Positions 34,245 to 56,708 are shown, numbered from the stretch's first letter. The stretch: 64,000 nt of DNA from Candidatus Woesearchaeota archaeon (GCA_017609645.1 JAFCDQ010000003.1:148846-212845), one strand, 5' to 3'. Numbers and translations are program-made. The notes: generated from the sequence alone by a model not told the origin.

Positions 34245-34279
34245 TTTTTTAAGAATCAGGCGCGCATTTATATTATTTT

Positions 34280-34981
34280 CTAATATCGTCCGCCTAGATA
34301 AACATTTTTTATTTTCTTGTGTTTTAGAATTTCTTTTCCGCCTTTTAATGCCACTTTACCGTCTTCTAACAAGTAAGTTTTGTCTGCTATCTCTACTGCT
34401 TTTTTTGCATTCTGTTCTACTATTAATATTGCTAAGCCTTCTTTTCTTAAATTTTTAATCATTTTGAAAACTTCTGTAACTAATTTTGGGCTTAATCCTA
34501 AAGATGGCTCGTCTAATAGCAATAGTTTTGGTTCTTGCATCAGCGCTCTTCCTAATGCTAGCATTTGTTGTTGTCCTCCACTTAAAGAAAAAGCATGTTT
34601 TTTCTGTTTTCTTTTTAATTCTGGAAATTTATCAAAAACTTTTTTCATATTTTCAGATAGTTTGTGATTAGTTAATCTTCCACCTAATTCTAAGTTTTCT
34701 TTTACTGTTAAATTTGAGAAATTGATTTTTCCTTGAGGAACATAGCTTATTCCTTTTTTGATTAATTCATGTGTTGGTAATTTTGTTATTTTTTCCCCTT
34801 CAAAATTTATTTTTCCAGAATAAATATCACATAAGTTAAAGACACTTTTTAATACAGTACTTTTTCCTGCTCCATTAGGCCCTATTAACGCAACTATTTC
34901 TCCTGCTTTGACTTCAATATCTATCCCTTGCAGTACTTTTAATTTCCCATATCCTGAGTCAAGTTTCTCTATCTTTAGCAT
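34280..34981 (-). CDS. livF: Branched-chain amino acid ABC transporter ATP-binding protein (LivF-like)
   Basis: Walker A GPNGAGKST, ABC signature LSGGQQQ and Walker B LLLLDEP. Confidence 0.85.
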   Translation of the reverse strand: MLKIEKLDSGYGKLKVLQGIDIEVKAGEIVALIGPNGAGKSTVLKSVFNLCDIYSGKINFEGEKITKLPTHELIKKGISYVPQGKINFSNLTVKENLELGGRLTNHKLSENMKKVFDKFPELKRKQKKHAFSLSGGQQQMLALGRALMQEPKLLLLDEPSLGLSPKLVTEVFKMIKNLRKEGLAILIVEQNAKKAVEIADKTYLLEDGKVALKGGKEILKHKKIKNVYLGGRY

Positions 34982-38349: not shown

Positions 38350-39081
38350 ATGGTAACAAAAGAAGAAGCATTAAAAGAACTGAATTTAAGCGATAAAGAG
38401 GTAAAAGTATATCTATCATTATTAATGCTGGGCCAATCTACTGCTAACTCTATAGCAAAAAAAGCCAGATTAAACAGAGTCACAACTTATGATATTCTTA
38501 AAGCTCTGCTAGAAAGAGGTTTTGTTTCTTATGTTATCAAATCAGGCGTTAAACATTTTGAAGCAGTTGACCCTTCTAAATTTTCAGACACATTAAAAGA
38601 AAAACAAGAAAAAATCAAGGCAATTATGCCAGAATTAAAAGCAATAAAAGCGTCTTTGACAAAAAAACCTCAAGTAGAGATGTTTGAAGAGATCAAAGGT
38701 TTGAAATCAATCTTTAATGATATTCTTAAAGAAAATAAAGAGACTTTGTTTATAGGGGATCCTAAGATGTTAGATAAACTTCAATTTTATTTCCCTCATT
38801 TTATCAAACAAAAGAGAAAACAAGGCATATTCTCTAAAGTAATCACTTTTGACTGTCCTTCTATGAGAAAATACAAGAAACAATCCCCTAAAAAATACCT
38901 TAATATGAAATTCATAAAACAAGAAATAGAAATGACTAAAGTGATTTATGGCAATAAAGTTTCTTTCTTAACCTTTAAGGAAAAGAATTCTATTGGAATA
39001 TTGATTAATAATAAAGATATAGCTGATACTGAAAGAAAATTATTTGATATGTTGTGGAAACAAGCTCATTCTCCTAAATAA
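38350..39081 (+). CDS. TrmB-family transcriptional regulator
   Basis: N-terminal HTH LSDKEVKVYLSLLMLGQSTANSIAKKARLNRVTTYDILKALLERGFV matches HTH_TrmB; 243 aa. Confidence 0.7.
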   Translation: MVTKEEALKELNLSDKEVKVYLSLLMLGQSTANSIAKKARLNRVTTYDILKALLERGFVSYVIKSGVKHFEAVDPSKFSDTLKEKQEKIKAIMPELKAIKASLTKKPQVEMFEEIKGLKSIFNDILKENKETLFIGDPKMLDKLQFYFPHFIKQKRKQGIFSKVITFDCPSMRKYKKQSPKKYLNMKFIKQEIEMTKVIYGNKVSFLTFKEKNSIGILINNKDIADTERKLFDMLWKQAHSPK

Positions 39082-39785
39082 GCATCCAGCACTTTCTTAT
39101 TATTTTGTATTTGTTTAGGTTTGCCCGACGCTATAACTTCTCCTGCATCTAAGACAAATATATGATCTACTAAATCCATAACGAAGTTCATGTCATGTTC
39201 AATCAAAAACACTGTTTCTCCTTTTTTGTTTAAATTTTGAATTATTTTTTTTATTTGTTTCCTTAACTTTGGATTAACTCCAGCTACTGGCTCATCCAGC
39301 ATCAATAAATCATGTGGTTTGGCTAAAGCAACGCCTAAATCTAATAACTTCCTTTGTCCATATGATAAATCACTTCCTAAAGTATGTAATGGCTTAGTCA
39401 ATCCTATCAAATTCATTATTTCTTTTATTTTCCATTCAACATCTTTTTCTTTTGCAAACATTGATTCATCATTTGTTGACAAAGCCATCATGAAATGATC
39501 TTTTATTGTTAAATTCTTGAATAATCGAGGATCTTGAAATGTTCGAGAAATTCCCATTTTAGCGACTTTATTAGGTCTAAATTTATCAATTCGTTCTTGT
39601 TTAAATTTTATAAATCCTGAATTTGGTTTTATCAATCTTGAAATAACATCAAATAATGTTGTTTTTCCAGATCCATTTGGACCTATGAGCGCTGTAATTT
39701 TATTTTTCTTAATTCCTAAACTACATTTATTTAATGCTCTTACTCCTCCAAAGTTTTTAGTTATTTCATGCGCTTCCAATATCAT
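39066..39785 (-). CDS. livG: Branched-chain amino acid ABC transporter ATP-binding protein (LivG-like)
   Basis: Walker A GPNGSGKTT, signature LSYGQRK and Walker B LLMLDEP. Confidence 0.85.
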   Translation of the reverse strand: MILEAHEITKNFGGVRALNKCSLGIKKNKITALIGPNGSGKTTLFDVISRLIKPNSGFIKFKQERIDKFRPNKVAKMGISRTFQDPRLFKNLTIKDHFMMALSTNDESMFAKEKDVEWKIKEIMNLIGLTKPLHTLGSDLSYGQRKLLDLGVALAKPHDLLMLDEPVAGVNPKLRKQIKKIIQNLNKKGETVFLIEHDMNFVMDLVDHIFVLDAGEVIASGKPKQIQNNKKVLDAYLGE

Positions 39786-40654
39786 TCGAGATCAATCCTC
39801 CCAAATAATCCTTTTGGTCTATACAATAATATTCCTAATAATATCAATGCATAGAATATTTGTCTTAATGGTCCTAGTACTGTGCTTGGCAAATACAAAA
39901 ACCTCAATGCTTCTGGGATTAATATAATAATAAAAGTAGCTACTATTGTGCCTTTGATTGACGCTATTCCTCCAACTATTACTATTGTAAATATTAAGAT
40001 TATTTCAGCTAATGAAAAACTGCTTGGATCAATATAAGTTATGTAAGATGCAAATAAGCTTCCTGCTATTCCTGCAAAGAATGCGCTCAGCATCATTGAT
40101 TTTGCTTTTAATTTGAATGTATCTTTTCCTAAAACTTTTAAGCCTATTTCATCATCTCTCACGCCTTGTAACAATCTTCCAAATGGGCTTTTGACTATTT
40201 TATATATTAAAAACACTGTTATAACAGCTAATATTGTTACAAAGATGAAATAAGGCAGTAAGCCGCTGATTTTAAATCCAAATATTACTGGTTTTGGAAT
40301 TCCTGGTATTCCTAATGGTCCTCGAGTTAATTCTGTCAAGTTCAACATTAATGAATAGATTACAAAACTAAATCCTAATGTTGCTAATGCTAAATAATCT
40401 CCTTTTAATTTCCTTGTTGCCAGAACTAGTAAAAATCCAAATATAGCCGCTATTAAGCCTGATATAAAAAAAGCCATAATAAATGAAACTCCTGCTTTTA
40501 ATAATAAGGCAGACGTATAAGCGCCTATTCCAAAGAATGCTACATGTCCTAAATTTAATAATCCTGTAAAACCTAATGCTAAATTCAAACTCACTCCCAG
40601 AATTATGTAAATCGCAATCAAAATCCCAATATGCAGCAAATAAGATTCTATCAT
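39782..40654 (-). CDS. livM: Branched-chain amino acid ABC transporter permease (LivM-like)
   Basis: Polytopic membrane protein; operon position between livH and livG with 4-nt overlaps. Confidence 0.8.
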   Translation of the reverse strand: MIESYLLHIGILIAIYIILGVSLNLALGFTGLLNLGHVAFFGIGAYTSALLLKAGVSFIMAFFISGLIAAIFGFLLVLATRKLKGDYLALATLGFSFVIYSLMLNLTELTRGPLGIPGIPKPVIFGFKISGLLPYFIFVTILAVITVFLIYKIVKSPFGRLLQGVRDDEIGLKVLGKDTFKLKAKSMMLSAFFAGIAGSLFASYITYIDPSSFSLAEIILIFTIVIVGGIASIKGTIVATFIIILIPEALRFLYLPSTVLGPLRQIFYALILLGILLYRPKGLFGRIDLE

Positions 40655-41538
40655 TTCTTCACTCCTTTATTTAATCCAAACAAGCCTGTCGGTTTGAATA
40701 ATAAAAACAAGAATAACAGTAAGAATGTTATTGCATTTTTATATCCTGACGGCAAGAACCATACTCCAAAATTTTCTGCGCCTCCAATAATATAGCTTCC
40801 TAATACTGCAGCAGGCACTGATGTTATTCCTCCTATTACTGCTCCTGTGAAGCCTTTTATCATCAGGCCCATTCCCATTGTTGGTTCTAGGTTTTGTTCC
40901 ATTCCTATTAGTATTCCAGCAAATCCTGCCATTACTGTTCCTAAAATAAATGCTAATGCCATGATTTTTTTAGAGTTTAATCCCATGATTTCTGATAATT
41001 CTGGATTGTCTGCTACTGCTCTCATATCTCTTCCTATTCTTATTTTATGCATGAATAACCATAATAAAACTAATAATAACACTGACGCAATTATTATTAC
41101 TAATTGCAATGGTGTTATGACCGCTCCTAAGAATTTGATTACATGAACTCCTTTGATATAACCTATTGTTTTTACATCTGCTCCATAAGCCATCAAAATT
41201 AGATTTTCAAATAATATCAGCAATCCTACACTTGCTATCAATAAAACTATGCTTGATGATTTTCTTTTCATTAAGGGGCTGTATATTCCTTTATACATCA
41301 AGTAGCCAAATAATCCTGTTATGATTAAAACTAAAATACAGCTGATTAAGAAAGGTATATGTAATAATGAGTACATCTGGAAGAGCATATATGCTCCTAT
41401 TACGACACTCACTCCGTGTGCAAAATGCATAAATCTGCTTGTTGAATATATTAAACTAAATCCAGAAGCCACTAATGCGTATATGCTTCCTGCTATTAAT
41501 GAGTTAACCAGCAACTGAACAAATATATTAAATGCCAT
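40651..41538 (-). CDS. livH: Branched-chain amino acid ABC transporter permease (LivH-like)
   Basis: Polytopic membrane protein; first gene of the livHMG block. Confidence 0.8.
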   Translation of the reverse strand: MAFNIFVQLLVNSLIAGSIYALVASGFSLIYSTSRFMHFAHGVSVVIGAYMLFQMYSLLHIPFLISCILVLIITGLFGYLMYKGIYSPLMKRKSSSIVLLIASVGLLILFENLILMAYGADVKTIGYIKGVHVIKFLGAVITPLQLVIIIASVLLLVLLWLFMHKIRIGRDMRAVADNPELSEIMGLNSKKIMALAFILGTVMAGFAGILIGMEQNLEPTMGMGLMIKGFTGAVIGGITSVPAAVLGSYIIGGAENFGVWFLPSGYKNAITFLLLFLFLLFKPTGLFGLNKGVKK

Positions 41539-41687
41539 TATTTCCTTTTTCTTTTAAATTCAGGCATATTTGTTTTTAAAATTTTGCATATCAGAAGAAG
41601 GGAAAAATAAAATTTAATGCACTAAACGTATTTAAATTTTTAATTGAGCCAATCTCTTCGCATTTTTAATAAAAACTTTTTTAAATG

Positions 41688-41701
41688 CCGAATATATACG
41701 G
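41688..41701 (+). promoter_or_regulatory. Candidate operator CCGAATATATACGG between the TATA-like TTTTTTAAAT and the probable start codon of the HTH_10 regulator
   Basis: Imperfect palindrome. A related copy, CCGAATATGTTCGG, lies at 42380-42393 upstream of the adjacent LivK-like gene. Confidence 0.4.
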
Positions 41702-41708
41702 TTATTGT

Positions 41709-42368
41709 ATGTGGTATATAAAATTCAAAATAAAACATAGTGATTGTGTTTATGCGCCAGAATTAGAAAAGTTAAAGCTTTCAGTATTTTTCTATCCATT
41801 AGGAAATTATAAAAAAAAGGGCTTTATTTTTACTTCGGCTCTTCAAAAAATTTCTGGAAAAGCAAATTCCATTAAAAAATATTTTACTTATCTAAAAAAG
41901 CATAAGAATACTCTAAGAATAGAACAATATGAGAATACTATTTTTACATTAGTTAAACATAAAAAAGTGAAAACAACTTATGAAACAATGTATAATCCTG
42001 CTTTAATATATCCTGCTCCTGCTTTTTTAGACAAAAAAGGATTTGAAATTTGGGAAATTGCTTGCTGGGACAGGAAACCATTAGAAACTTTAATCAGTGC
42101 AATGTCAAAAAGTAAGACAACAATCAGTTTTGAACTTCTTTCTTTTGTAAAAAGAACCCTGCATGAGGTATATATCCTTAATTTGCTTCCAAAATTAAGT
42201 CCAAAACAAAGAGAGGCGATTGAATTAGCTTACAAAGAAGGATATTATGAATATCCCAAAAAAACAGATCTTAATAAGCTTGCAAAAATGATGAAGGTTG
42301 GAAAGTCAACATTTCAAGAGCATCTAAAAAAAGCTGAAAAAAAGATTATTCCCAGATTAATTGAATAA
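41709..42368 (+). CDS. Transcriptional regulator with a C-terminal HTH_10 (bacterio-opsin-activator-type) domain
   Basis: C-terminus LSPKQREAIELAYKEGYYEYPKKTDLNKLAKMMKVGKSTFQEHLKKAEKKII. I chose the Met at 41709 (MWYIKFKIKH) as the start because it aligns with the paralog N-terminus MWIAKFKFKH; the track begins at the ATG at 41685. Confidence 0.7.
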   Translation: MWYIKFKIKHSDCVYAPELEKLKLSVFFYPLGNYKKKGFIFTSALQKISGKANSIKKYFTYLKKHKNTLRIEQYENTIFTLVKHKKVKTTYETMYNPALIYPAPAFLDKKGFEIWEIACWDRKPLETLISAMSKSKTTISFELLSFVKRTLHEVYILNLLPKLSPKQREAIELAYKEGYYEYPKKTDLNKLAKMMKVGKSTFQEHLKKAEKKIIPRLIE

Positions 42369-42379
42369 ATTTTAGAATA

Positions 42380-42393
42380 CCGAATATGTTCGG
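42380..42393 (+). promoter_or_regulatory. Second copy of the CCGAATAT-N-T-CGG motif (CCGAATATGTTCGG), about 85 nt upstream of the LivK-like gene at 42479
   Basis: Inverted-repeat arms CCGAA/TTCGG, preceded by the TATA-like TTTTAGAATA. Confidence 0.4.
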
Positions 42394-42478: not shown

Positions 42479-43600
42479 ATGATGAAAAAAATTTTTGCAA
42501 TCATTCTAACATTCCTATTAACCTTAACATTTCTAGCAGGATGTTCACCAGTTAATCAAGAAGAGACTATTAAAGTTGGATTTGTATCTACTCTTTCAGG
42601 TGAAGCAGGTTCTTGGGGTCAACAAGTAAAAAAAGGTTTTGAATTTGCTCTGGAAGAGATTAATACTAACAAGCTTTTAGGAGACAAAAAACTTGAAATT
42701 TTCTATGAAGATGATTTTTGTGATGCGACAAACGGATTAACAGCATTTAATAAATTAATAGATGTTAATGATGTTCAGATAATTGTTGGAACTGTTTGCT
42801 CTTCTGTTGCAATGGCAGTATCAGAGAAGACTCAAAGTAATCATATATTATATCTAGCTTCTGCAGCTACAAATCCTGAAGTAACAGAACAAGGAGATTT
42901 TATATTTAGATTATGGGCTTCAGATGACTATGATGCAAAAGCTATCGCTCAATTTGCTGTTAATGAATTAAGATTAGAAACATTTGCAGTTACTTATGTT
43001 AATGATAATCCTGCAGGCCCCATATTAAAAGATGCTTTTAAAGAAACAATTCTAAAAAAAGGAAAAAAGATTTTGGCAGAAGAATCCTATTCTTCAAAAG
43101 AGACTGATTTTAAAACACATTTAATTAAGATTTTACAAAAAAATCCTGAAGCAGTTTATTTAATGACTAATCCAGAAAGGACTGATTTAATCATAAATCA
43201 AATAAGACAACTAGGTTTTGAGGGCATAATATTTGCTTACGGACCTTCGATCACTTCTGAAGGCGTGGTTGAAAAGATTAAAGATAAAAAAGATATATAT
43301 TATGCTTTGCCGGTTTCAAAACAGGAGACACTATTTTGGAATAAATATAAAGAGAAAAAAGGCGAAGATGCAGATTCTCTCGTGGCTTTAGGTTATGACA
43401 GTATGAAAATTCTTGTTGATGGAATTAAAAAATGTGATGTTGATACTGGGTGTTTAAGAGAATATCTGCTAAAGCTAAAAGATTATGAATCTGCAAGAGG
43501 TAAATTAAACTTTGACTCTGAAGGAGCTTTGACTAATATTGAATTTGAAGTGAAAAAAATAAAATTTAAACCTTACCCAATTCTCCATTCACAACTTTGA
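42479..43600 (+). CDS. LivK-like substrate-binding lipoprotein
   Basis: Lipobox LAGC followed by IKVGFVSTLSGEAGSWG; 373 aa. Confidence 0.8.
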   Translation: MMKKIFAIILTFLLTLTFLAGCSPVNQEETIKVGFVSTLSGEAGSWGQQVKKGFEFALEEINTNKLLGDKKLEIFYEDDFCDATNGLTAFNKLIDVNDVQIIVGTVCSSVAMAVSEKTQSNHILYLASAATNPEVTEQGDFIFRLWASDDYDAKAIAQFAVNELRLETFAVTYVNDNPAGPILKDAFKETILKKGKKILAEESYSSKETDFKTHLIKILQKNPEAVYLMTNPERTDLIINQIRQLGFEGIIFAYGPSITSEGVVEKIKDKKDIYYALPVSKQETLFWNKYKEKKGEDADSLVALGYDSMKILVDGIKKCDVDTGCLREYLLKLKDYESARGKLNFDSEGALTNIEFEVKKIKFKPYPILHSQL

Positions 43601-44681
43601 ATGAATCAAAATCTACCAAGATATCTCCGTTCTCATCAAATGTTATCTCTTGCATTAATCCTTTCCATCCTTTTGTGTTATATAATTCTTTTTTGATGCA
43701 ATCAGTATCTTCTCCGCATTTTTCCATTTTTTCTGCTAATAGAAATAATCCGTCATATAATGTTGCACAAAACACTCCTACATCACATCCAATTGTTTCT
43801 TGTAAATATTTGAAACCTTCTGTTGTTTCATCAAAATGCTGTTTTTGTATAATCATTCCTTCCATATAATCTTTTCCCTCATTTAAAGTATCTCCTAAAC
43901 TAAACATTTCAGCTCCGTAAAGTTTTGCTGAAATATCTTGTTCTTTAACTTGTTTTGCAAAAAGAATTGCTACTGGAATTGTTTGCGGAACTAAATATAT
44001 TGCATCAGGTTCTGATTGTTTTATCTTTAACAATTGCACTCTGAATTCTTTTTCATCAGAATTTACTAGCTCATCTGCAACTATTGTTCCGCCGAATTTA
44101 ACAATTTCTTCTTTGAATTTTTCTCTTAATGCTTGGGCATAGTCAGTATTTTCAGAAAGTACCGCTATTTTTTTGTTTTCTTGTTCAATAACTTTTTGTG
44201 CAGCTACTATTGCTTGATGAACATCTGAACCAACATTTCTAAATATATATTCTCCTGCAGTTGTGATTTCAGGGCTTGTTGATGCTGGCGATAAGAATAT
44301 TATTTTTTTTTCTTCAACAAAAGGCGCAGCTCCTAATGTTTCGCCTGAACAAATTCCTCCAAAAATAGTTTTCACGCCTTTTAAATTAACTAATGTTTGT
44401 GCTGCTGTTAACCCATCTTTTGGATTGCATTTGCCATCTTCAAAAAGCAGATTGAATCTGATATTTTTTTTCTCTTTCTTCAATTTTTCATTTAAGTCTT
44501 CTAATGCTTTCTGTGCTATTTTTTGCCCAATCAAACCATGAAAAGCACCATCTCCTGTTAATGGAAATATTGCGCCTATCTTATAGACTTTAACTTTTTC
44601 TTTTATTGGTTGAGCAATTTGTGTTGTAGTACAAGCTGCCAAGAACAATAAAATCATTATGATTGTGATTATTTTTTTCAT
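43566..44681 (-). CDS. LivK-like substrate-binding lipoprotein (close paralog of 45771..46901)
   Basis: Lipobox LAAC followed by a TTTQ linker and YKIGAIFPLTGDGAFHG. Its C-terminal 50 aa are nearly identical to the paralog. Confidence 0.8.
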   Translation of the reverse strand: MKKIITIIMILLFLAACTTTQIAQPIKEKVKVYKIGAIFPLTGDGAFHGLIGQKIAQKALEDLNEKLKKEKKNIRFNLLFEDGKCNPKDGLTAAQTLVNLKGVKTIFGGICSGETLGAAPFVEEKKIIFLSPASTSPEITTAGEYIFRNVGSDVHQAIVAAQKVIEQENKKIAVLSENTDYAQALREKFKEEIVKFGGTIVADELVNSDEKEFRVQLLKIKQSEPDAIYLVPQTIPVAILFAKQVKEQDISAKLYGAEMFSLGDTLNEGKDYMEGMIIQKQHFDETTEGFKYLQETIGCDVGVFCATLYDGLFLLAEKMEKCGEDTDCIKKELYNTKGWKGLMQEITFDENGDILVDFDSFKVVNGELGKV

Positions 44682-45770: not shown

Positions 45771-46901
45771 TTAAATCTTTACCAATTCTCCATCCACAAC
45801 TCTGAATGAATCATATTGAACTAAGATATCTCCATTGTCATCAAAAGTTATCTCTTGCATTAATCCTTTCCATCCTTTTGTATTGTACAATTCTTTCTTG
45901 ATGCAATCTGTATCTTCTCCGCATTTTTCCATTTTTTCTGCCAAAAGAAAAACTCCATCATAAATTGAAGCACAATATATCCCTAATTCGCATCCTGTCT
46001 CTTCTTGGACATACTTGAATTCTTCAGTAGTCTCATCAAAATGAGCTTTTTGAGTTATCATTCCTTCTAAATAATTCTTCCCCTTTTTCAAGGTGTCGCC
46101 AAAAGTAAAAGCTTCATTTCCGAAAAGTTGTGCTGATATTGTTTGTTCAGTTATTTGCTTAGCAAACATTATAGCTACACGAATATTCTGCGCATTTAAG
46201 TACAATGCATCAGGATTGGCTGTTTTTATTTTTATTAATTGAATTCTTATGTCTCTTTCATTAGAATTAACGACTTCATCAGCGACTATCTCTCCTCCTA
46301 GTTTTTTGATTTCTTCTTTAAATTTTTCTCTTAATGCTTGTGCATAATCAGTATTTTCTGAGAGTACTGCTATTTTTTTATTGCCCTCTCCTAAAATTTT
46401 CTTCGCAGCAACAACAGCTTGATATTCATCAGAACCAATATTTCTAAATATATAATCTCCTGCATTAGTAATCTCAGGGCTTGTTGACCCAGGGGATAAC
46501 ATTATTATTTTATTTTCTTCTGCAAATGGCGCAGCTCCTAATGTTTCGCCTGAACAAAATCCTCCAAAAATTACTTTTATATCTTTTAAATTAATTAGTG
46601 TTTGCGCTGCAGTTAATGCATCTTTTGGATTGCACCTACCATCTTCAAAAACTAGCTCAAATTTTATATTTTTATTTTCTACTTTTAATTTTTTATTTAA
46701 ATCTTCTAATGATTTTTGTATTACTTTTTGTGCAGGCATTCCATAAATAGAAGCATCACCTGTTAAAGGCAATATTAAACCTATTTTATATACTTTTGTA
46801 CCAGTTACTATAATTTCTTTTGATTTTGTTGCAACTTGAGTTGTAGTGCAAGCTGTAACTAAGAACAACATGATTAAAATTGTAAATAGGTTTTTTTTCA
46901 T
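45771..46901 (-). CDS. LivK-like substrate-binding lipoprotein (close paralog of 43566..44681)
   Basis: Lipobox VTAC followed by a TTTQ linker; the 3'-end nucleotide sequence is about 85-90% identical to 43566-43760. Confidence 0.8.
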   Translation of the reverse strand: MKKNLFTILIMLFLVTACTTTQVATKSKEIIVTGTKVYKIGLILPLTGDASIYGMPAQKVIQKSLEDLNKKLKVENKNIKFELVFEDGRCNPKDALTAAQTLINLKDIKVIFGGFCSGETLGAAPFAEENKIIMLSPGSTSPEITNAGDYIFRNIGSDEYQAVVAAKKILGEGNKKIAVLSENTDYAQALREKFKEEIKKLGGEIVADEVVNSNERDIRIQLIKIKTANPDALYLNAQNIRVAIMFAKQITEQTISAQLFGNEAFTFGDTLKKGKNYLEGMITQKAHFDETTEEFKYVQEETGCELGIYCASIYDGVFLLAEKMEKCGEDTDCIKKELYNTKGWKGLMQEITFDDNGDILVQYDSFRVVDGELVKI

Positions 46902-46980
46902 TTTTTGCCTACCTCAAGTTCTAATTTTTTATCTACCTTAAATTATTATTAATAAGTCAAAACTAAATATTTAATCTTTT

Positions 46981-46998
46981 TACCAAACATGTTTGGTA
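46981..46998. promoter_or_regulatory. Perfect 18-bp palindrome TACCAAACATGTTTGGTA between the HTH_10 regulator gene and the LivK-like gene at 45771..46901
   Basis: It is self-complementary over all 18 nt. A degenerate copy overlaps the regulator's own start codon at 47653-47669. Confidence 0.45.
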
Positions 46999-47002
46999 TT
47001 TT

Positions 47003-47653
47003 TTATTTAGAATAAGATAATAAGTTTGGAATAAGTTTCTCTTCAGCTACTCTTATATGCTGTTGATAAGTCGCTAAAGAAACTCCTGTAAGCTTAGCTA
47101 GTTTTCTTAAATCTGTTTTTTTAGGAGTTTTATAATATCCTTCTTTTATTGCCAGTTCTATTGCTCTTTTTTGTTTTGCAGTTAAATCCGGCATTAGTTT
47201 TGGAAAAAACACATTGTCAATGTTTATTTTATTAAATTTTAATAATTCAAAATTTTTTATTCTTTTTTTGACTTTGTTAACAAATTTAGAAACTTCTTCT
47301 TTTTCCCAAGAAGCTATTTCCCACGTTTCATAGCCTTTATCATCGATTAATACTGGCTTGACAAAGATTATTTTTGGCGTATAAAACTCAACTGCTTTGA
47401 TTTGAGCTTTTTCTAAAAGGAAAAACATATCTCCTTTTTGTTCTAGTTTTATTACGTTTTTGTCTTTTTTTAAGTCTAAAACAAAATCAGTCATATTTGA
47501 AGGTCTGCCTGCCATATACTGCAAAGAAGATGTAACAGCTCTTCCTTTATCTTTAAAAACAGAAAAAACAACTCCTTGTATGGTTATCTTAAACTTTTCA
47601 CATCTATTCCCTATTATACAATCATGTTTAAACTTAAACTTTGCTATCCACAT
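47003..47653 (-). CDS. Transcriptional regulator with a C-terminal HTH_10 (bacterio-opsin-activator-type) domain; paralog of 41709..42368
   Basis: C-terminus LTAKQKRAIELAIKEGYYKTPKKTDLRKLAKLTGVSLATYQQHIRVAEEKLIP. Confidence 0.7.
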   Translation of the reverse strand: MWIAKFKFKHDCIIGNRCEKFKITIQGVVFSVFKDKGRAVTSSLQYMAGRPSNMTDFVLDLKKDKNVIKLEQKGDMFFLLEKAQIKAVEFYTPKIIFVKPVLIDDKGYETWEIASWEKEEVSKFVNKVKKRIKNFELLKFNKINIDNVFFPKLMPDLTAKQKRAIELAIKEGYYKTPKKTDLRKLAKLTGVSLATYQQHIRVAEEKLIPNLLSYSK

Positions 47654-47669
47654 ACAAACATGTATGGTA
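47653..47669. promoter_or_regulatory. Degenerate copy (TACAAACATGTATGGTA) of the 18-bp palindrome, placed between a TATA-like TTTATAAAA and the regulator's ATG
   Basis: Matches TACCAAACATGTTTGGTA at 15 of 18 positions and overlaps the start codon at 47653. Confidence 0.35.
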
Positions 47670-47757
47670 TTAGGTTTTATAAAAGTTTTGAAAAATTAGA
47701 AGGCCAATAAATTTTCTCTCATTTTACTAATAATTGTTCAAAGTTCCTGTTAAATGT

Positions 47758-48970: not shown

Positions 48971-48988
48971 AATTTTCTATAGAAAATT
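48971..48988. promoter_or_regulatory. Perfect 18-bp AT-rich palindrome AATTTTCTATAGAAAATT in the divergent promoter region between the LivK-like gene and the tandem Lrp gene; overlapped by a second inverted repeat AAATTTTGC-N6-GCAAAATTT (48984-49007)
   Basis: Both are self-complementary. A TATA-like TTTAAATA at 49005-49012 lies 22 nt before the Lrp ATG. Confidence 0.35.
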
Positions 48989-49034
48989 TTGCATAACCGC
49001 AAAATTTAAATATTATTATGTAGTTTCTGCATAT

Positions 49035-50009
49035 ATGAAGCTTGATTTGATTGATAGAAAGATTTTATATGAACTGGATTTTAATGCAAGAATGCCTTTG
49101 ACTAAATTAGCTAAAAAGCTTAGGATTTCAAGGCAGGTTGCTGATTATAGGATTAAGAATTTAGAAAAAAAAGGCATAATAGAAGAATATTTTGTCATTG
49201 TTGATAATGCAAAACTTGGATTAAATTATTTTAGGTTAGTCATCCAAATGACAGATTTTCCAAAAATTAATGAAATTCTTGAATTTGGTAAACAAAATCC
49301 TAATTTGGCTTTTTTAGGCCTTCTTGATGGAATGTGGAATTTATGTATAGGAATTTGGGTCAAGGATATTTCAGAATTTGAAGACTTTTTACGATATGTT
49401 CTTTATAAATACGGAAATTATATTTCAGATAAAGAAGTTTCAATCGGTTTTCAAATCAGACATTTTCAGTCAGGTTTTTTATTAGACAAAAAAGATAATA
49501 AGGAATTCTTAACTGGTGGAAAATTATTTAAAATTAAGCTTGATGATATTGATAAGAAATTACTTATATTATTAAGTAAAAATGCCAGGGAATCAATTTG
49601 TAGTTTAAGCAAAAAGCTTAATATCAGTGAAAGAAGTGCAGCATATAGGATTAGACAATTAAAAAAGAGAAAAGTTATTCTTGGTTATAAAACAAAAATT
49701 GATTATAAAAAACTAGGTTTTTTTAATTATAAAGTTTTTTTTAATTTTAAAAAATTAGAAAAAAAAGATGAAACCGCTTTAATTTTTTATCTCAAACAAC
49801 TGCCAAATTGTATTTATGTGACAAAACCAATAGGAATGGCAGATTTAGAATGTGAACTTCTGATTAGAACAAGAGAAGACTTTTTTAATATAATGCAGGA
49901 AATCATGGAAAAATTTGGATATATCATTAAAAAATACGAACACTTAGTTATTTACAAAGAGCTAATATTAAGATATATTCCTGTAAATTATGACTCTAAT
50001 AAAAAGTAA
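49035..50009 (+). CDS. Tandem-duplicated Lrp/AsnC-family transcriptional regulator (324 aa)
   Basis: Two AsnC-type HTH modules (KILYELDFNARMPLTKLAKKLRISRQVADYRIKNLEKKGII and LLILLSKNARESICSLSKKLNISERSAAYRIRQLKKRKVILGY). Confidence 0.8.
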   Translation: MKLDLIDRKILYELDFNARMPLTKLAKKLRISRQVADYRIKNLEKKGIIEEYFVIVDNAKLGLNYFRLVIQMTDFPKINEILEFGKQNPNLAFLGLLDGMWNLCIGIWVKDISEFEDFLRYVLYKYGNYISDKEVSIGFQIRHFQSGFLLDKKDNKEFLTGGKLFKIKLDDIDKKLLILLSKNARESICSLSKKLNISERSAAYRIRQLKKRKVILGYKTKIDYKKLGFFNYKVFFNFKKLEKKDETALIFYLKQLPNCIYVTKPIGMADLECELLIRTREDFFNIMQEIMEKFGYIIKKYEHLVIYKELILRYIPVNYDSNKK

Positions 50010-50023
50010 AGAAAAAATAAAAG

Positions 50024-51226
50024 TTATCTATGCAAAAAGCACCTTTCATGTGTGTCGAACAACACTAATCCCATCTCATCTGCCATGAATATCACATCAG
50101 TATCTGCAGTTGAGCCTCTGGGAAAGATTATTCCTTTGATGCCATATTGTGCAGCTAACTTAACAACATCAGTCGCAGGCATAAAAGCATCTGAAGCCAT
50201 GAATGTTCCTTTTGATTGATATCCTCGTTCAGATAATCGAATAGCATCCATTGCAGCATCTATTCTGCTTCTTTGCCCAGAACCAATGCCATGTGCTTTA
50301 TTTTCTGTTGCAATAACAATTGCATTTGATCTTGTGTGTGCTGCCACATGCCATGCAAACAGCGCTGTGTATATATCATCCTCTGTTGGTTTTTTCTTTG
50401 AAATACACTCAAGATCTTCAGGTTTCCAAATGTTAGTTTGATATCTGTTCTCAACCAACAAACCACCTGCAGTTCGTTTATAGTCTATTCCACTATCTTT
50501 TACTGGCTCTGAAATATCTGGCATCTGCAAAACTCTTAGTGGTTTTCTTTTCTTTAGTGCTTCTAATGCTTCGTCAGTATAGGATGGTGCTATCAACACT
50601 TCTGAATTTTTCTTAGGTTTTGCAATCTGCTCTGCAACTTCTTCAGTTACTTCATAAGATAAAGCAATAACTCCTCCAAAAGAAGATAATTCGTCTGCAA
50701 ACCATGCTCGTAAATAAGTTTGTAATGGGTCTGTTCCTCTTGCAACGCCGCTTGGCATTTCATGTTTTACTATTGTTGCAACTAAAGTATCTACACTCTC
50801 GTTCTCAAATAATTCTTTGTCATTTTGTTTGTTTGAAAGTTCATGAAGTGATTTTGTCAATCTTAAAGCCAAATCAACATCTCCTATGTTGATATAACCT
50901 AAACCTTTTGTTCCTTCTTGCAATACTTCAAATGTTGCTGTGCATGGTCCTGAAGCTCCGTCTTCTCCATAAAATGCAGCAGATCCTCCTGGATTCTGAC
51001 CATATCTAAGAGAGAGTTTTTTACTAAACGTTGTTGAAGATTCCCGAATAAGTTGCATCAATTCACGGTCTTGATCAATGTCTAATCCTTGGTCATTTTC
51101 CAATCCCAATCTTTCTAATTTTAGTTTAATAAATTTATCCATATCTATAATTGCACATTGTTCTGGAAAAGATTCGTCTACTTTTTTCACATATTTTTCT
51201 TTACTTGATTCCTCTACCATTCTCAT
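50024..51226 (-). CDS. purH: AICAR transformylase, domain-only PurH (lacks the N-terminal MGS-like IMP cyclohydrolase domain)
   Basis: LRYGQNPGG (PurH LRYGENPHQ motif) and the C-terminal ...GIKGIIFPRGSTADTDVIFMADEMGLVLFDTHERCFLHR match the AICARFT domain; 400 aa. Confidence 0.8.
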   Translation of the reverse strand: MRMVEESSKEKYVKKVDESFPEQCAIIDMDKFIKLKLERLGLENDQGLDIDQDRELMQLIRESSTTFSKKLSLRYGQNPGGSAAFYGEDGASGPCTATFEVLQEGTKGLGYINIGDVDLALRLTKSLHELSNKQNDKELFENESVDTLVATIVKHEMPSGVARGTDPLQTYLRAWFADELSSFGGVIALSYEVTEEVAEQIAKPKKNSEVLIAPSYTDEALEALKKRKPLRVLQMPDISEPVKDSGIDYKRTAGGLLVENRYQTNIWKPEDLECISKKKPTEDDIYTALFAWHVAAHTRSNAIVIATENKAHGIGSGQRSRIDAAMDAIRLSERGYQSKGTFMASDAFMPATDVVKLAAQYGIKGIIFPRGSTADTDVIFMADEMGLVLFDTHERCFLHR

Positions 51227-51984
51227 TCACCTCTCTCACTTCTATTTATTCTAAAAAATTTGTTATTAATATTATTAATATCTCTTTCTTGGAAAGCAAC
51301 TGCAACACTTACTCTAAAATCATCTTTGCCTTGTTCTGGTTTTAATGCTTCATAAACAGCTTCTGCTATTTCTTCAGGAGTTTTTCCTTTTAATTCAACA
51401 TCGAATGGTTCTCCTGTAAAAGAAGGAACTGGTTCTACATTCGGTCCTGCATATGTTGTGATTGATTTTCCTTTTCCTGAAATTAATGGAAACTCAAAAT
51501 GATATCTTAATGTTTCATCATTTTCTGCTTTTTTCAATATGCCTAACACAGCCACATTATCTTCTCTCATAACTATGCCACCAATTCTTGGCGTGCAGTA
51601 TTTATCATCTTCATATGACCATTTGTCAGAATGATTTTTTGAAAACGCAGAAGTCATAACTTTCATTGGAGAAGTACCATTTATAAAATAAGAATGATCA
51701 ATTGCTGACATATGGTCTCCATTAGCGATCAGTAAAGCTCTGTCAGCCATTATTGCATTATCATAAAGAAGCAAATCAACTTTTCCTTGTTTAACTGTGT
51801 CTTCATCAATAGCCTCGATTTTGACATTATTTCCAACTACTTCCAATTTCCTTGCCCTGCTTGGCGGACTTCTTCCTGTCAATGCATAAACAACAACATT
51901 ATTATCATCTATCTGTCCAATTATTATAACTCGTCCAAGATATTCCCATTTTGCTAAATTTTCCAATCCTTCTCCTTTTGTCAT
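51223..51984 (-). CDS. purO: Archaeal IMP cyclohydrolase PurO
   Basis: YLGRVIIIGQ...YALTGRSPPSR...TPRIGGIV parallels M. jannaschii PurO (YLGRILAVG...YRVSSRSFPNR...TPRIAAAI). Overlaps purH by 4 nt. Confidence 0.75.
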   Translation of the reverse strand: MTKGEGLENLAKWEYLGRVIIIGQIDDNNVVVYALTGRSPPSRARKLEVVGNNVKIEAIDEDTVKQGKVDLLLYDNAIMADRALLIANGDHMSAIDHSYFINGTSPMKVMTSAFSKNHSDKWSYEDDKYCTPRIGGIVMREDNVAVLGILKKAENDETLRYHFEFPLISGKGKSITTYAGPNVEPVPSFTGEPFDVELKGKTPEEIAEAVYEALKPEQGKDDFRVSVAVAFQERDINNINNKFFRINRSERGE

Positions 51985-51986
51985 TT

Positions 51987-53633
51987 TTATTCCTCCTTTC
52001 TAAAAGATAATTTTAATTCTTTAAGACGAGCTTTTGCATATGTAACAGGAATTGCTGTTAGTCTGCCTGCATCGCCAATATTATTTTCAGGTTTAATTAT
52101 TCCTAGAATTTCATCTCTCACATCAAAGGTTATTTTATTGTCTGCTAAAAGTTTGCTTGTCAAATAAACATAATCACTTTCTTGTACTTTTCTTCCCATT
52201 GTTTTTTCTTTCAAAGTATCATATGCATCTGATATTCCTTCTCTTTTAAGTATTGTCTGCACAGCCGCTGCTGACATTTCTGGATGTTCATCTACTTCTT
52301 TTTGAATATTGTCATAATTTGGTTCATATTTATTTATCTCTTGAATTAATCTTTTTATTCCAATTATTGTTTTTGCAAAAGGTTCTCCTATGCCTCTTCT
52401 TTGTATTGATCTTCTTAAATCTCCCTGCATCTTATATTTAATCTGTCTTTCAAATCCTTGAAATTCTGCATTTGCTTCTGTCAAATATTCTTCTGCTCCT
52501 TCTGACAGCCAAGGATTTGTTTTCTGCGCCATTACAGAAGATCCTGATTCTCCTTTTGTTGTCTTTTTCTGAAATAATCCTCGACTGCAATAATCCCAAA
52601 AGTCAGCGCAAACTTTTATCAAAACATTATTTGTGTTTACAACATCATCATAGAATTTCTGATGCTGCACTCCAAAAACAGGCTGGTCTGCCATTAACTC
52701 AAGTTTTAATTTTAAAATACCTTCAACAAAATATCTGCCAAACTCATCCCAGTCAGCATAATCAGGATATGCTGCAATTAAGTCATTATTATTTCCAATT
52801 GCTCCTCCTAATTTTCCCGGCATTAATAAATATTTATTTGCAAAATTATCTAGTTCAATACCTAAAATAGAAATAAAATTAGCAAATACTTTATGCAAGG
52901 TTGTATATTCTGCATATTGGCCGTGTGTTTGTCCTGCAAATACAGCAGGATCCCAAGTCTCAACTTTTTTAATTAAAGTTTCTTGCAGTTTTAACAATGC
53001 AGGCATATAATGTTCTTTAAACAGTTCTTTTACTGTTAAACTATAAACATTTCCATCAATATCGTCTGATGTTAATGCAAAATGTATGGCTGATTCAACT
53101 TCATTTCTTATGTCTTTTTCCAAAGAATCTCCTAGTTCATATACCATCCATGTTGTCATCGCAACTACATCATGATTTATTTCTCTGTCAAGCAGTTGTA
53201 TTTTTCTAAAATCATTTTCATCAAAATTCTTATACAAGCTTCTTAACTTTTCTTTTTCTTTGTCAGTAAATTCTCTACTTAAAAGATGTTTTTTCTCACC
53301 TTCATATTCATTACAAATAACATCAGTTAATGCAATCAAATATTCTACTTCAACATATACTCTTTTTCTTGTCCATTCATATTGTGATGTAACAGAATGC
53401 AATTCATCAACATATCTATCATATCTTCCTTCTATTGGAGATATCGCATGCATTCTTTTCTTTAGTTTTTCATTTGTTTCAATAGTGTTAAGTAAATAAG
53501 TAATAACTGATTCATCAACCTCTTCAGAAAGTTCGCGCATCAATAATTGTTTTGTATCTAATATAATATTGTCAAACTCAGAAATAAGATGTTCTAATCC
53601 TTTTCTTTTAAGTATTTCTGTATTTTTTACCAT
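51987..53633 (-). CDS. purB: Adenylosuccinate lyase with an N-terminal extension of about 60 aa
   Basis: ISPIEGRY (PurB SPxDGRY motif) and the fumarate-lyase signature GSSVMAQKTNP. The real start may be the internal Met at 53453. Confidence 0.8.
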   Translation of the reverse strand: MVKNTEILKRKGLEHLISEFDNIILDTKQLLMRELSEEVDESVITYLLNTIETNEKLKKRMHAISPIEGRYDRYVDELHSVTSQYEWTRKRVYVEVEYLIALTDVICNEYEGEKKHLLSREFTDKEKEKLRSLYKNFDENDFRKIQLLDREINHDVVAMTTWMVYELGDSLEKDIRNEVESAIHFALTSDDIDGNVYSLTVKELFKEHYMPALLKLQETLIKKVETWDPAVFAGQTHGQYAEYTTLHKVFANFISILGIELDNFANKYLLMPGKLGGAIGNNNDLIAAYPDYADWDEFGRYFVEGILKLKLELMADQPVFGVQHQKFYDDVVNTNNVLIKVCADFWDYCSRGLFQKKTTKGESGSSVMAQKTNPWLSEGAEEYLTEANAEFQGFERQIKYKMQGDLRRSIQRRGIGEPFAKTIIGIKRLIQEINKYEPNYDNIQKEVDEHPEMSAAAVQTILKREGISDAYDTLKEKTMGRKVQESDYVYLTSKLLADNKITFDVRDEILGIIKPENNIGDAGRLTAIPVTYAKARLKELKLSFRKEE

Positions 53634-53671
53634 GCTTTCTCTCTATAAAATTTAAAATAAAAAAATAAAAT

Positions 53672-54988
53672 TTATCTATTAATTGCTTTAGCTGCAATAT
53701 CTGTTCTAAAATACTGTGATTTTTTCCCTGTTTCTTTGTCAACAAATTTGATTTTCTCTACAGCATCATATGCTCCTTTCTGCGCTTCAGCAATATCTTT
53801 TCCATAATGTGTCACTCCTAATACTCTTCCTCCGCTTGTTACTAAATTTCCAGCTTCATCTAATTTTGTTCCTGCATGAAACACAAAAGTATTTGGATCT
53901 GTTACACTTTCTAAGCCAGTAATCAATTTTCCTCTGTCATACTCGTTTGGATATCCTTCTGATGCCATTACTACACAGCATGCAGCTCCGTCTTTATGTT
54001 TAATCTCTACTTCATCTAATTTTCCTGTTGCACATGCCATGCATGCTTCATACCAGTCAAAGTCAGTTAACATTGTTATTGGTGGCATTTCAGGGTCTCC
54101 TCCTCTGACATTAAATTCTAATACTTTTATTCCATCTGCAGTTTTTATTAATCCTGCATAGATTATTCCTTTGTAGGTTATTCCAATACTGTTTAACCCC
54201 TCAACTAATGGAGCTAAGATTGTTTTATAGATCTGCTCTTCCATTCCAAGAATCACTGGCGCTGGTCCATATGCACCCATTCCTCCTGTATTTGGTCCTT
54301 TGTCGCCATCAAATGCTGGCTTGTGATCTTGTGTTGAAACAAGCTGCTTGATTGTTTTGCCGTCACATAATGCTATTACAGATGCTTCTTCTCCTATTAA
54401 TTTTTCTTCTACTACAATCAAATCACCTGCACTTCCAAATTTCTTGTTTACCATGATTAAATCAATTGTTTGGTATCCATGTTCTAAATTGTTTAAAACT
54501 ATTACTCCTTTTCCTGCTGCTAAGCCGTCAGCTTTCACAACTGCTTCTAATCCACTGTCATAAAGATCTTTTAGATAATCTTTTGCTTCTTCTGGATTAT
54601 CAAATGATTCATAAGCTGCTGTAGGTATTCCAAATTCTGTCATTGTTTCTTTAGCAAACTTTTTGCTGCCTTCAAGCAAAGCAGCACTTTTATTTGGTCC
54701 AAAGATATGTTTCATACTTGCGCCCATCTCATAAGTATCTGCAATTCCATCTACTAATGGCTGTTCAGGTCCAACAACTGTTAAAGTAATATTTTTATCA
54801 TGAACAAACTTAATGATCTGTCCAAATTGATCAAGATCTAATTTTACATTTTCTCCTTTTTCCAGTTGCGCAGTTCCAGCATTTCCTGGTCCGCACCAGA
54901 CTTTGTCAACATTAGGGCTTTTATTCATTTCTCGTGCAAAAGAATGTTCTCTAGATCCACTGCCTAAAATTAATACTTTTTCTCCCAT
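53672..54988 (-). CDS. purD: Phosphoribosylamine--glycine ligase
   Basis: N-terminal KVLILGSGSREHSFA, an ATP-grasp core and 438 aa. Confidence 0.95.
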   Translation of the reverse strand: MGEKVLILGSGSREHSFAREMNKSPNVDKVWCGPGNAGTAQLEKGENVKLDLDQFGQIIKFVHDKNITLTVVGPEQPLVDGIADTYEMGASMKHIFGPNKSAALLEGSKKFAKETMTEFGIPTAAYESFDNPEEAKDYLKDLYDSGLEAVVKADGLAAGKGVIVLNNLEHGYQTIDLIMVNKKFGSAGDLIVVEEKLIGEEASVIALCDGKTIKQLVSTQDHKPAFDGDKGPNTGGMGAYGPAPVILGMEEQIYKTILAPLVEGLNSIGITYKGIIYAGLIKTADGIKVLEFNVRGGDPEMPPITMLTDFDWYEACMACATGKLDEVEIKHKDGAACCVVMASEGYPNEYDRGKLITGLESVTDPNTFVFHAGTKLDEAGNLVTSGGRVLGVTHYGKDIAEAQKGAYDAVEKIKFVDKETGKKSQYFRTDIAAKAINR

Positions 54989-55004
54989 TTTTCCACCTCA
55001 AAAC

Positions 55005-56708
55005 TTATTTTGGTCTGTAAACTGTTGCATGTTTTGCATTGTCTTCTGCAACTTTTGCTTTCTTGCCTTGCATATATTTCTCTACACCCTCTTTAACTTC
55101 GTCGTGTTTTAATCCAAGTATTTTTGCTGCAGCTAAAGCAGAATTAGTTCCGCCATATGCAACTGTTGGAGCAACTCCGCTTGGTGTTTGTAAAGAACTC
55201 CAAACTTCATTTGAATCTTTGTCAGATTTATTTTCATAATTAATTATCACTGGATTTAATGTCCTTGCTGCAATAGAAGGTCCTTTTCCATTTGACATTC
55301 CTGTTACATCAATGTAAATAATATCTCCTGAATAAGAATCAAACCAGTCTACTAATTCAAATAAACTTTCAGGATCTCTATGTGCTGATGCAACATTTAT
55401 TCCATGAGGTATATTTAATGCTTTTAATGTTTTTGAAATGTTTTTCACAGGAGACTTTTCCTTCTCAATATCACTTCCAGATCCTGCAATTATTGAAACA
55501 AAATATCCTTTTATTAATTTGTCATTTTGGCTATATGTACAATTTAGATTATGGCAGACTATATGTGACTGATCAAAGTAAGAATCTCCAACTTTTAATC
55601 CTTCTACAACATCGTCTAAATCAGCACCTGTCAAAAATTCATGTGCTTGGCAAATTATTTTTGCTGCTTCTAAACGAACAGAGTCAGGCAATACAACTCC
55701 TTTCTTTTTCCATAAACCTGCCTCTTGCAGATATTTTCTAACATATTCTTTGTCAAAAGCTTGAGGCTCTTCTTCTGCTTCAAATCTTTCTTGATAAGTT
55801 TCTAATTCCCAAAATCTTGAAGAATCTGTTGTAAACCATTCATCAGCTAAAACTACACAATCAGCAGGCTCAGTATAATTTATTTTTTGCTCTTTTGTGT
55901 ATTTTCTGACTCCCCATTCAAACTTTGTGTCAACAAATATTTTGCCTTTTTTCGCTAATTCTTCTGCTCCTAATTTATATAATTTTTTTGAACAATCAAT
56001 CACATAATCAAGAACATTTCTATCACTAATTGAAGCACTCAATAGCAAAGATCTCTCTTCTTCACCCTCGACTATAGGCAGAGGTAAAACAATCTTATTA
56101 AATCTCTTTTGCAAAAATTCATATGCCTCTTCAACAGTTATGCCAGGATCTCCGTCTGCTTTTGTTGTTATTGTAACAATTGGCTTAACAAACTTTGCAT
56201 TTTTCTTTATCTCGCCACCTTCAAACATGTCTGGCGTTAGTTCAATACCATATTGTTCATAGAATTTATTGTTTGTTGAAGAATGCCTCTTTCCATAATC
56301 TATAATTTGATTAAAATCTCGCCAAGCAGATCCTGTTATAAATCCCCTAACTATTACTTCTAATCCTAAAGTATGTAATTGCTCAATAAGCATTGAATTT
56401 GTAGTTAATCTTTTTTTTAGATGATGCTGACAAATCTGCTCTTCTTCAATCTTTTTTGCCCAATATTCCTGAACTTCAACAAATAAAGCTCCTTTAAGCG
56501 GAATAGCACCAGTAAGTTCTACATCTCCTGCAGAAATCCTGTCTGTTGTGAATTGTATTCCTTCTATATCATTTATCTCATAATTATCTCTTACTTTGCC
56601 TTTATGAAAGCCTCCCTCAGGCACTCCTAACTCTGGAAAGCATGTTGTTTCAAGAACTCTATTTTCTTCAATCATAATTTTTAATGTTTCATCTACAGAC
56701 ATTTGCAC
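55005..56708 (-). CDS. purCE: Bifunctional SAICAR synthetase (eukaryotic Ade1-like PurC) fused to AIR carboxylase (PurE); PAICS-like domain order
   Basis: N-terminal GKVRDNYEI...TTDRISAGDV matches the SAICAR synthetase fold. The C-terminal IAGSGSD...SAHRDPE...AYGGTNSALAAAKILG matches PurE. Confidence 0.8.
   Translation of the reverse strand: MQMSVDETLKIMIEENRVLETTCFPELGVPEGGFHKGKVRDNYEINDIEGIQFTTDRISAGDVELTGAIPLKGALFVEVQEYWAKKIEEEQICQHHLKKRLTTNSMLIEQLHTLGLEVIVRGFITGSAWRDFNQIIDYGKRHSSTNNKFYEQYGIELTPDMFEGGEIKKNAKFVKPIVTITTKADGDPGITVEEAYEFLQKRFNKIVLPLPIVEGEEERSLLLSASISDRNVLDYVIDCSKKLYKLGAEELAKKGKIFVDTKFEWGVRKYTKEQKINYTEPADCVVLADEWFTTDSSRFWELETYQERFEAEEEPQAFDKEYVRKYLQEAGLWKKKGVVLPDSVRLEAAKIICQAHEFLTGADLDDVVEGLKVGDSYFDQSHIVCHNLNCTYSQNDKLIKGYFVSIIAGSGSDIEKEKSPVKNISKTLKALNIPHGINVASAHRDPESLFELVDWFDSYSGDIIYIDVTGMSNGKGPSIAARTLNPVIINYENKSDKDSNEVWSSLQTPSGVAPTVAYGGTNSALAAAKILGLKHDEVKEGVEKYMQGKKAKVAEDNAKHATVYRPK

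Follow-up and report, generated by a model that had tools for sequence, protein, structure and literature searches.

Two dyad-symmetric elements that flank the gene of an HTH_10-type transcription factor (regulator 2) in a 64,000-nucleotide stretch of Candidatus Woesearchaeota archaeon DNA (the window) are, with high probability, the sites to which this regulator binds. We consider it likely that they serve as operators through which regulator 2 would repress its own gene from the upstream site and activate the adjacent gene, encoding a LivK-like substrate-binding protein, from the downstream site. A dimer of the regulator would read a CC-N10-GG dyad, the inner bases of each half-site being set by the recognition helix (A, S or P at helix residue 3 specifying A, G or T at base 3, and Q at residue 7 specifying C at base 6). 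The features concerned are, in window coordinates:

45771-46901, minus strand: gene of the LivK-like substrate-binding protein (376 aa; Peripla_BP_6, 1.4e-43), the presumed target
46915-46908, minus strand: Shine-Dalgarno-like GAGGTAGG of the LivK-like gene
46965-46982, minus strand: BRE-like TAAAAAG (46982-46976) and TATA-like ATTAAATATTT (46975-46965), proposed as the promoter at which the LivK-like gene is regulated
46981-46998: predicted downstream operator TACCAAACATGTTTGGTA, a perfect 18-bp palindrome with the 14-bp core CCAAACATGTTTGG at 46983-46996
47003-47653, minus strand: regulator 2 gene (216 aa, MWIAKFKFKHDC..., HTH_10)
47653-47669, minus strand: predicted upstream (auto-regulatory) operator TACCATACATGTTTGTA, with the left half-site intact and the right half-site degenerate
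47675-47684, minus strand: putative TATA box TTTTATAAAA of the regulator 2 promoter, in archaeal promoter geometry

The plus strand at 46981-46998 reads as an 18-bp palindrome without mismatch, located, as a first-pass annotation of the window had reported, between the regulator gene and the LivK-like gene; it begins 4 bp past the regulator 2 stop codon (47005-47003, minus strand) and lies 80-81 nt from the LivK-like ATG (46901). The second element is 17 nt long, reads TACAAACATGTATGGTA as given and TACCATACATGTTTGTA on the coding (minus) strand, and ends on the A of the regulator 2 ATG (47653-47651). Its position between TTTTATAAAA and the ATG had been described correctly, but the resemblance to the palindrome, put at 15/18, is in fact 16/18 with one gap and 14/18 ungapped, and an ungapped scan of the window for a second copy at up to three mismatches gave no match because a gap or four mismatches are needed. 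Common to both elements is the 15-mer TACCAWACATGTTTG, found three times in the window against 0.02 expected, a pattern chosen post hoc in that it was derived from the same sites that it counts. The window has a G+C content of ~31%. Markov simulations predicted 0.7 perfect 18-bp palindromes per window, and 20% of them held one with at least three G/C pairs per half. A lone perfect palindrome of this length is compatible with chance; the pairing of the elements, their placement and their conservation in relatives exceed it. The only other perfect 18-bp palindrome of the window, AATTTTCTATAGAAAATT (48971-48988), is unrelated in sequence and lies in the divergent intergenic region between a LivK-like gene (47758-~48930, minus strand; the called TTG start at 49002 is probably too far upstream) and a tandem AsnC-type regulator gene (49035-50009, plus strand), of which it is a candidate operator.

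Regulator 2 is a member of a large uncharacterised family of ~216-aa one-component regulators from DPANN archaea (Woesearchaeota/Pacearchaeota-type). Its N-terminal part is a double ferredoxin-like domain and its C-terminal part an HTH_10 domain (PF04967; residues 157-208, 58.3 bits against a cutoff of 23.1, E = 6.8e-16), the helix-turn-helix of the family being sigma-region-4-like (sigma-4/LuxR type), with S192-L-A-T-Y-Q-Q-H199 as the recognition helix. Residues 1-150 had no Pfam match even at E ≤ 10, and neither NCBIfam profiles nor a PDB sequence search named a family for the N-terminal ~150 residues. Pfam also detected no PAS/GAF or BAT domains ahead of HTH_10 in regulator 2 (E ≤ 10) and neither an N-terminal winged HTH nor a C-terminal AsnC_trans_reg (RAM) domain, and its TrmB profile matched neither regulator 2 nor the paralogue described below, regulator 1. 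An MmeI_C match of P0096 was rejected, being under its cutoff and overlapping the HTH. The N-terminal domain is probably ligand-sensing. Six of its residues (H10, C12, E109, W111, E112 and W116, in regulator 2 numbering) are invariant in the family alignment and could form a ligand or metal site.

Relatives of regulator 2 with 56-75% identity are numerous and all stem from DPANN archaea (Woesearchaeota, Pacearchaeota and Nanoarchaeota MAGs). From 125 fetched loci we retained 91 distinct full-length regulators, all of which begin MW. Several of the MAGs are labelled "uncultured Methanosarcinales archaeon" and one "Chloroflexota bacterium" (L011, L020, L025, L026, L030, L032, L037, L039 and L041), which are probably binning or labelling errors and not the true hosts. 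Nearly all regulator 2-like genes have ACCATACATGTTCGT immediately before the ATG, with a TTTATATA-type box ahead of it, and those with a co-directional next gene have CCATACATGTTTGGTAAAA shortly past the stop codon; other clades display the same layout with other dyads, CCTCATATTTGAGG and CCGAATATTTCGG. When a strict filter was applied (CC-N10-GG, at least 3/4 outer bases and 4-5 of 7 pairs), a dyad was present no more than 34 nt before the ATG in 55/91 relatives and no more than 100 nt past the stop in 60/91, where the background rate of these loci predicts 5.8 and 4.8, respectively, and both sites were present in 41/91. All three counts are minimum values, since looser variants such as ACATACATGTTCGC are missed by this filter, under which about one third of the relatives are without one of the two sites. 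A dyad operator in the regulator's own promoter, repeated at the neighbouring promoter and kept in relatives, is what characterizes an auto-regulated local factor.

The two sites of one locus also resemble each other. When the 22 nt before the ATG were compared with the region past the stop codon of the same gene, upstream and downstream sites matched at 11/12 positions or better in 27% of the first 44 loci; the corresponding values were 2% among distantly related pairs and 0.7% among shuffles. An unanchored search for the best 14-mer shared between the flanks was swamped by A/T-rich promoter-like matches and was replaced by position-anchored and dyad-based scans. The downstream dyad is present at 53/71 loci with a co-directional next gene and at 1/9 with a convergent one (Fisher p = 4e-4), which ties it to the promoter of the next gene and not to the 3' end of the regulator gene. 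Its distance from the stop codon is variable (0-43 nt) and that to a BRE-like element fixed. In one subclade (L034, L037, L038 and L044) two dyads follow within the first 60 nt past the stop codon: one that overlaps or abuts this codon, succeeded by CTTTTTC (a T-run, possibly a terminator), and a second 30-40 nt further on, succeeded by GGGTAAAA and a TATA-like box. The regulators of this subclade are without an upstream dyad and directly behind a co-directional ORF, and for these reasons are probably operonic.

A second member of the family, regulator 1, is encoded in the window and shares 39% identity with regulator 2; tblastn detected no third member in the window. Its features are:

41709-42368, plus strand: regulator 1 gene (219 aa; HTH_10, 68.6 bits; recognition helix G-K-S-T-F-Q-E-H)
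41688-41701, plus strand: predicted upstream operator of regulator 1, CCGAATATATACGG, 7 nt before the ATG at 41709
42380-42393, plus strand: predicted downstream operator of regulator 1, CCGAATATGTTCGG, 11 nt past the stop and 85 nt before the LivK-like gene at 42479-43600

The automatic ORF call begins at 41685, and the start was taken as 41709 because all relatives begin MW. The first-pass annotation had proposed that the paralogous regulators share the placement of their sites and differ in half-site sequence (CCAAACAT versus CCGAATAT), and on both points we concur: sites were found in the expected positions around regulator 1, in a layout that is also family-wide, and the half-sites (CCAAACA for regulator 2, helix SLATYQQH; CCGAATA for regulator 1, helix GKSTFQEH) differ at exactly bases 3 and 6, the positions that covary with helix residues 3 and 7. 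At these residues the recognition helices of the paralogues likewise differ (A versus S at residue 3, Q versus E at residue 7). Among the relatives, A at residue 3 goes with A at base 3 in 24/30 cases, S with G in 42/53, P with T in 27/28 and Q with T in 3/4, and base 6 is C in 39/40 sites where residue 7 is Q and mixed where it is E, counts that are inflated by shared ancestry, the independent changes being few (roughly five or six clades). The pairing of S with G is seen in three separate clades.

Half-site weight matrices built without the window's sites (class I, regulator 2 type; class II, regulator 1 type) assigned all four sites of the window to the class of their own regulator. The regulator 2 sites scored 24.3 (downstream) and 17.6 bits with class I and 13.7 and 1.2 bits with class II; the regulator 1 sites scored 23.1 bits with class II versus 18.9 with class I (downstream) and 17.8 versus 10.2 (upstream). 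The predicted operator specificities of the two paralogues have diverged, with overlapping classes and partial insulation. Given this overlap (18.9 bits for the regulator 1 downstream site under class I), the paralogues may cross-bind, regulator 2 in particular on the regulator 1 downstream site.

The centre of TTTTATAAAA is 26.5 nt from the regulator 2 ATG, which is not preceded by a Shine-Dalgarno sequence, and in relatives, TTTATATA-like boxes are found at this distance as well. The TATA distance and the missing Shine-Dalgarno sequence fit a leaderless regulator 2 mRNA. The predicted upstream operator spans about -17 to -1, between TTTTATAAAA and the ATG, and at such a position, behind the TATA box and ahead of a leaderless start, its occupation would block recruitment of RNA polymerase and result in negative auto-regulation, as described for archaeal sites located between TATA and start (PMC5512572). 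It is probably the weaker site, since its right half-site is degenerate and partly over the start codon.

The predicted downstream operator is directly abutted, with no spacer, by the BRE-like TAAAAAG, and would thereby adjoin an A-rich BRE and a weak TATA box facing the next gene. In 28 aligned downstream dyads from all clades, the sequence that comes next is (G/T)(A/T)AAAA, N3-4 and (T/G)ATAT. Regulator 2 bound at this site would most likely activate the LivK-like gene, because archaeal activators recruit TFB/TBP from such positions just upstream of the BRE (PMC5512572), with EarA, whose sites lie just upstream of a weak A-rich BRE, and TFB-RF1 as activators that have sites at this position (PMC5512572, PMC10665913). 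The sign that we assign to each site, at both promoters, is deduced from the position of the site. One motif, placed downstream of the TATA box at the regulator promoter and upstream of the BRE at the next, is the arrangement of a position-dependent dual regulator, the promoter elements having been identified by sequence only. In relatives, the next ORF often begins 36-41 nt past the downstream dyad, a leaderless spacing. The window differs in that 80-81 nt, not ~38 nt, separate the downstream operator from the LivK-like ATG, and a second A/T-rich TATA candidate (~46940-46955) lies nearer the LivK-like gene, so that the true promoter could be more remote from the operator than we suppose. The LivK-like protein has a lipoprotein-like signal peptide (N-terminus MKKNLFTILIMLFLVTAC), in keeping with a LivK-type protein, and the ligand of regulator 2 might, judging from this target, perhaps be an amino acid.

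The main rival explanation keeps the same operators and makes regulator 2 a plain repressor at both promoters, released by a ligand on its N-terminal domain so that both genes are induced, which we judge rather unlikely. Release of a repressor by its ligand is common among archaeal regulators of transporter genes (TrmB at the TM operon is one example); the upstream site is placed as for a classical repressor, and a dimer bound at a dyad that abuts TAAAAAG could occlude TFB. However, the dyad lies wholly upstream of the BRE and not over BRE or TATA, and compared with the TTTATATA-type boxes that the regulators have in their own promoters, the TATA-like boxes past the downstream dyads ((T/G)ATAT, ATTAAATAT) deviate more from the canonical form, as one would expect if these promoters depend on an activator. 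The precedents at this position, EarA and TFB-RF1, also argue against it, both being activators (PMC5512572, PMC10665913).

It is very improbable that both sites auto-regulate the regulator gene only, for example by DNA looping between dimers ~670 bp apart, with the next gene not a target. Such an arrangement would account for the bracketing of the regulator gene by two sites in relatives and for following genes that are unrelated among themselves, but not for a downstream dyad that comes with a conserved BRE/TATA-like element, spaced from the next ORF as for a leaderless transcript, is nearly missing when the next gene is convergent, and holds a fixed distance to the BRE-like element while its distance from the stop codon varies. 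Even less credible are RNA hairpins (a terminator or mRNA-stability element) or chance palindromes in A/T-rich DNA, despite the 0.7 palindromes expected per window and a location just past a stop codon, where terminators occur, given that the hairpin is weak (-5.5 kcal/mol, z = -1.6 by RNA folding), A's and not U's come after the stem on the regulator's strand, a terminator scan found no terminator-like site and Rfam no match, the upstream copy precedes a leaderless start and would hence not be transcribed, relatives keep the sequence, including a non-pairing position (CCATACA/TGTTTGG), and not the pairing, and site sequence covaries with protein residues.

Auto-repression from the upstream site with activation of the LivK-like gene from the downstream one is the reading that we retain. 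The first-pass annotation had in addition attributed the two regulators and their neighbours to duplication of a sensor-regulator cassette, which our data do not support: the regulators are only distantly related, the kinship of the binding proteins is discordant with theirs, and relatives precede unrelated genes. The split between the regulators is old, since they share 39% identity while relatives of regulator 2 at 60-75% occur in many other DPANN genomes. The LivK-like protein encoded at 45771-46901 is 70% identical to its closest paralogue (43566-44681), encoded beside an AsnC-type regulator gene, and ~30% identical to the one after regulator 1 (42479-43600). BLAST of the window's binding proteins against the relatives' loci revealed that the gene after the regulator is almost never that of a binding protein; the genes after relatives of both regulators encode Methyltransf_33 with radical SAM, Orn/DAP (PLP) decarboxylase, flavin reductase, other methyltransferases and many unknowns. 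In one other genome, too, a single contig encodes two paralogues whose operators belong to different classes (L015, L035).

The binding proteins 43566-44681 and 45771-46901 derive from a recent duplication and are associated with regulators of different families (AsnC-type and HTH_10, respectively). Alignment of their upstream regions is confined to the vicinity of the Shine-Dalgarno/ATG and of a AAATATTTA box, and this limited alignment, together with the different regulator families, suggests that promoter and regulator were replaced after the duplication. At another locus (L045:1174-6783), a regulator 73% identical to regulator 2 and with the same two predicted operators is found right after serine recombinase (Resolvase) and NikA-like genes and ahead of Methyltransf_33 and radical-SAM genes, a context which hints that regulator and target can lie on a mobile element.

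A broader reading, which we put forward as tentative and on balance doubtful, would join a readable family code (residue 3 A/S/P with base 3 A/G/T, residue 7 Q with base 6 C) to a portable module, composed of an auto-repressed regulator and a 3' operator-BRE-TATA "promoter-out", that was repeatedly placed before unrelated cargo, sometimes beside recombinase genes, with paralogues of the same genome kept apart by operator divergence. The cargo would be the LivK-like gene here and methyltransferase/radical-SAM, decarboxylase and flavin reductase genes elsewhere.

To our knowledge, gene regulation is almost unexplored in DPANN archaea, which do not grow by themselves in culture. Our literature searches retrieved no operators for this regulator family or for DPANN regulators, none for HTH_10 proteins outside haloarchaea, and nothing relevant on Ta1207. 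The haloarchaeal bacterio-opsin activator Bat, of the HTH_10 family, has the same C-terminal DNA-binding domain as regulator 2, both being archaeal one-component regulators, and acts via a site that precedes the TATA box in the promoters it controls. In contrast to Bat, regulator 2 is without PAS/GAF/BAT domains, has a double ferredoxin-like N-terminus and comes from DPANN archaea, not Halobacteria, and its CC-N10-GG operator and two-site placement are in silico predictions only. The position logic proposed here is like that of TrmBL1/Tgr of Thermococcales, where one motif mediates repression from downstream of the TATA box and activation from upstream of the BRE; those proteins, however, have an unrelated TrmB fold with a sugar-binding domain and control a global sugar regulon, whereas regulator 2 has two local sites with presumed signs of regulation. 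Archaeal Lrp/AsnC regulators (Ptr2, LrpA) are small and local, have a ferredoxin-like ligand domain, repress their own genes, activate a neighbour from a site upstream of its promoter and often control amino-acid transport; three AsnC-type regulators lie beside other LivK-like genes in the window. Regulator 2 departs from them in its reversed order, with the sensor N-terminal and the HTH C-terminal, and in a sigma-4/LuxR-type HTH in place of a winged helix.

EarA, the euryarchaeal archaellum regulator, was compared by its published description. Its sites, TACATA in Methanococcus and A(C/G)(C/G)TACA(T/C) in Thermococcales, lie directly upstream of a weak A-rich BRE, and the protein is proposed to recruit TFB (PMC5512572, PMC10665913). 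EarA is described as a winged-helix protein whose gene always adjoins one for a methyltransferase (PMC10117864). Two of the regulator 2 relatives similarly precede a Methyltransf_33 gene. The EarA sites are short direct repeats with the archaellum operon as target, whereas that of regulator 2 is a dyad, and EarA is a functional analogue only, by site position and a TACAT-like core.

Conceptually, the proposed system is an auto-regulated local transcription factor of standard type that works through dyad operators, an ordinary kind of switch, and its value therefore resides in detail and tractability and not in a new principle. The comparison of relatives provides a concrete, testable regulator-operator pair and a candidate two-residue specificity switch (A194S, Q198E) separating two paralogues in one cell, and the promoter layout predicts opposite effects at the two promoters.

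The neighbourhood at 35-50 kb contains six LivK-like binding-protein genes (35039, 37166, 42479, 43566, 45771 and 47758), each adjoining a regulator gene: two HTH_10, three tandem AsnC-type (~320 aa) and one TrmB. Amid them are:

38350-39081: TrmB gene
39066-41538: LivH/LivM permease and ATPase genes, a single set

Further ABC-like ORFs at 33516-34981 lie outside the profile scan behind the single-set count. The locus has the appearance of a single transporter served by many binding proteins under separate regulation, which suggests control of a Liv-type ABC transporter with six alternative binding proteins through a dedicated regulator for each binding-protein gene.

DPANN archaea are usually described as being without nucleotide biosynthesis, which makes notable a purine-biosynthesis run at 50024-56708 of the window, comprising AICARFT/IMPCHase-like, archaeal IMP cyclohydrolase, adenylosuccinate lyase and GAR synthetase genes as well as a gene for SAICAR synthetase fused to AIR carboxylase.
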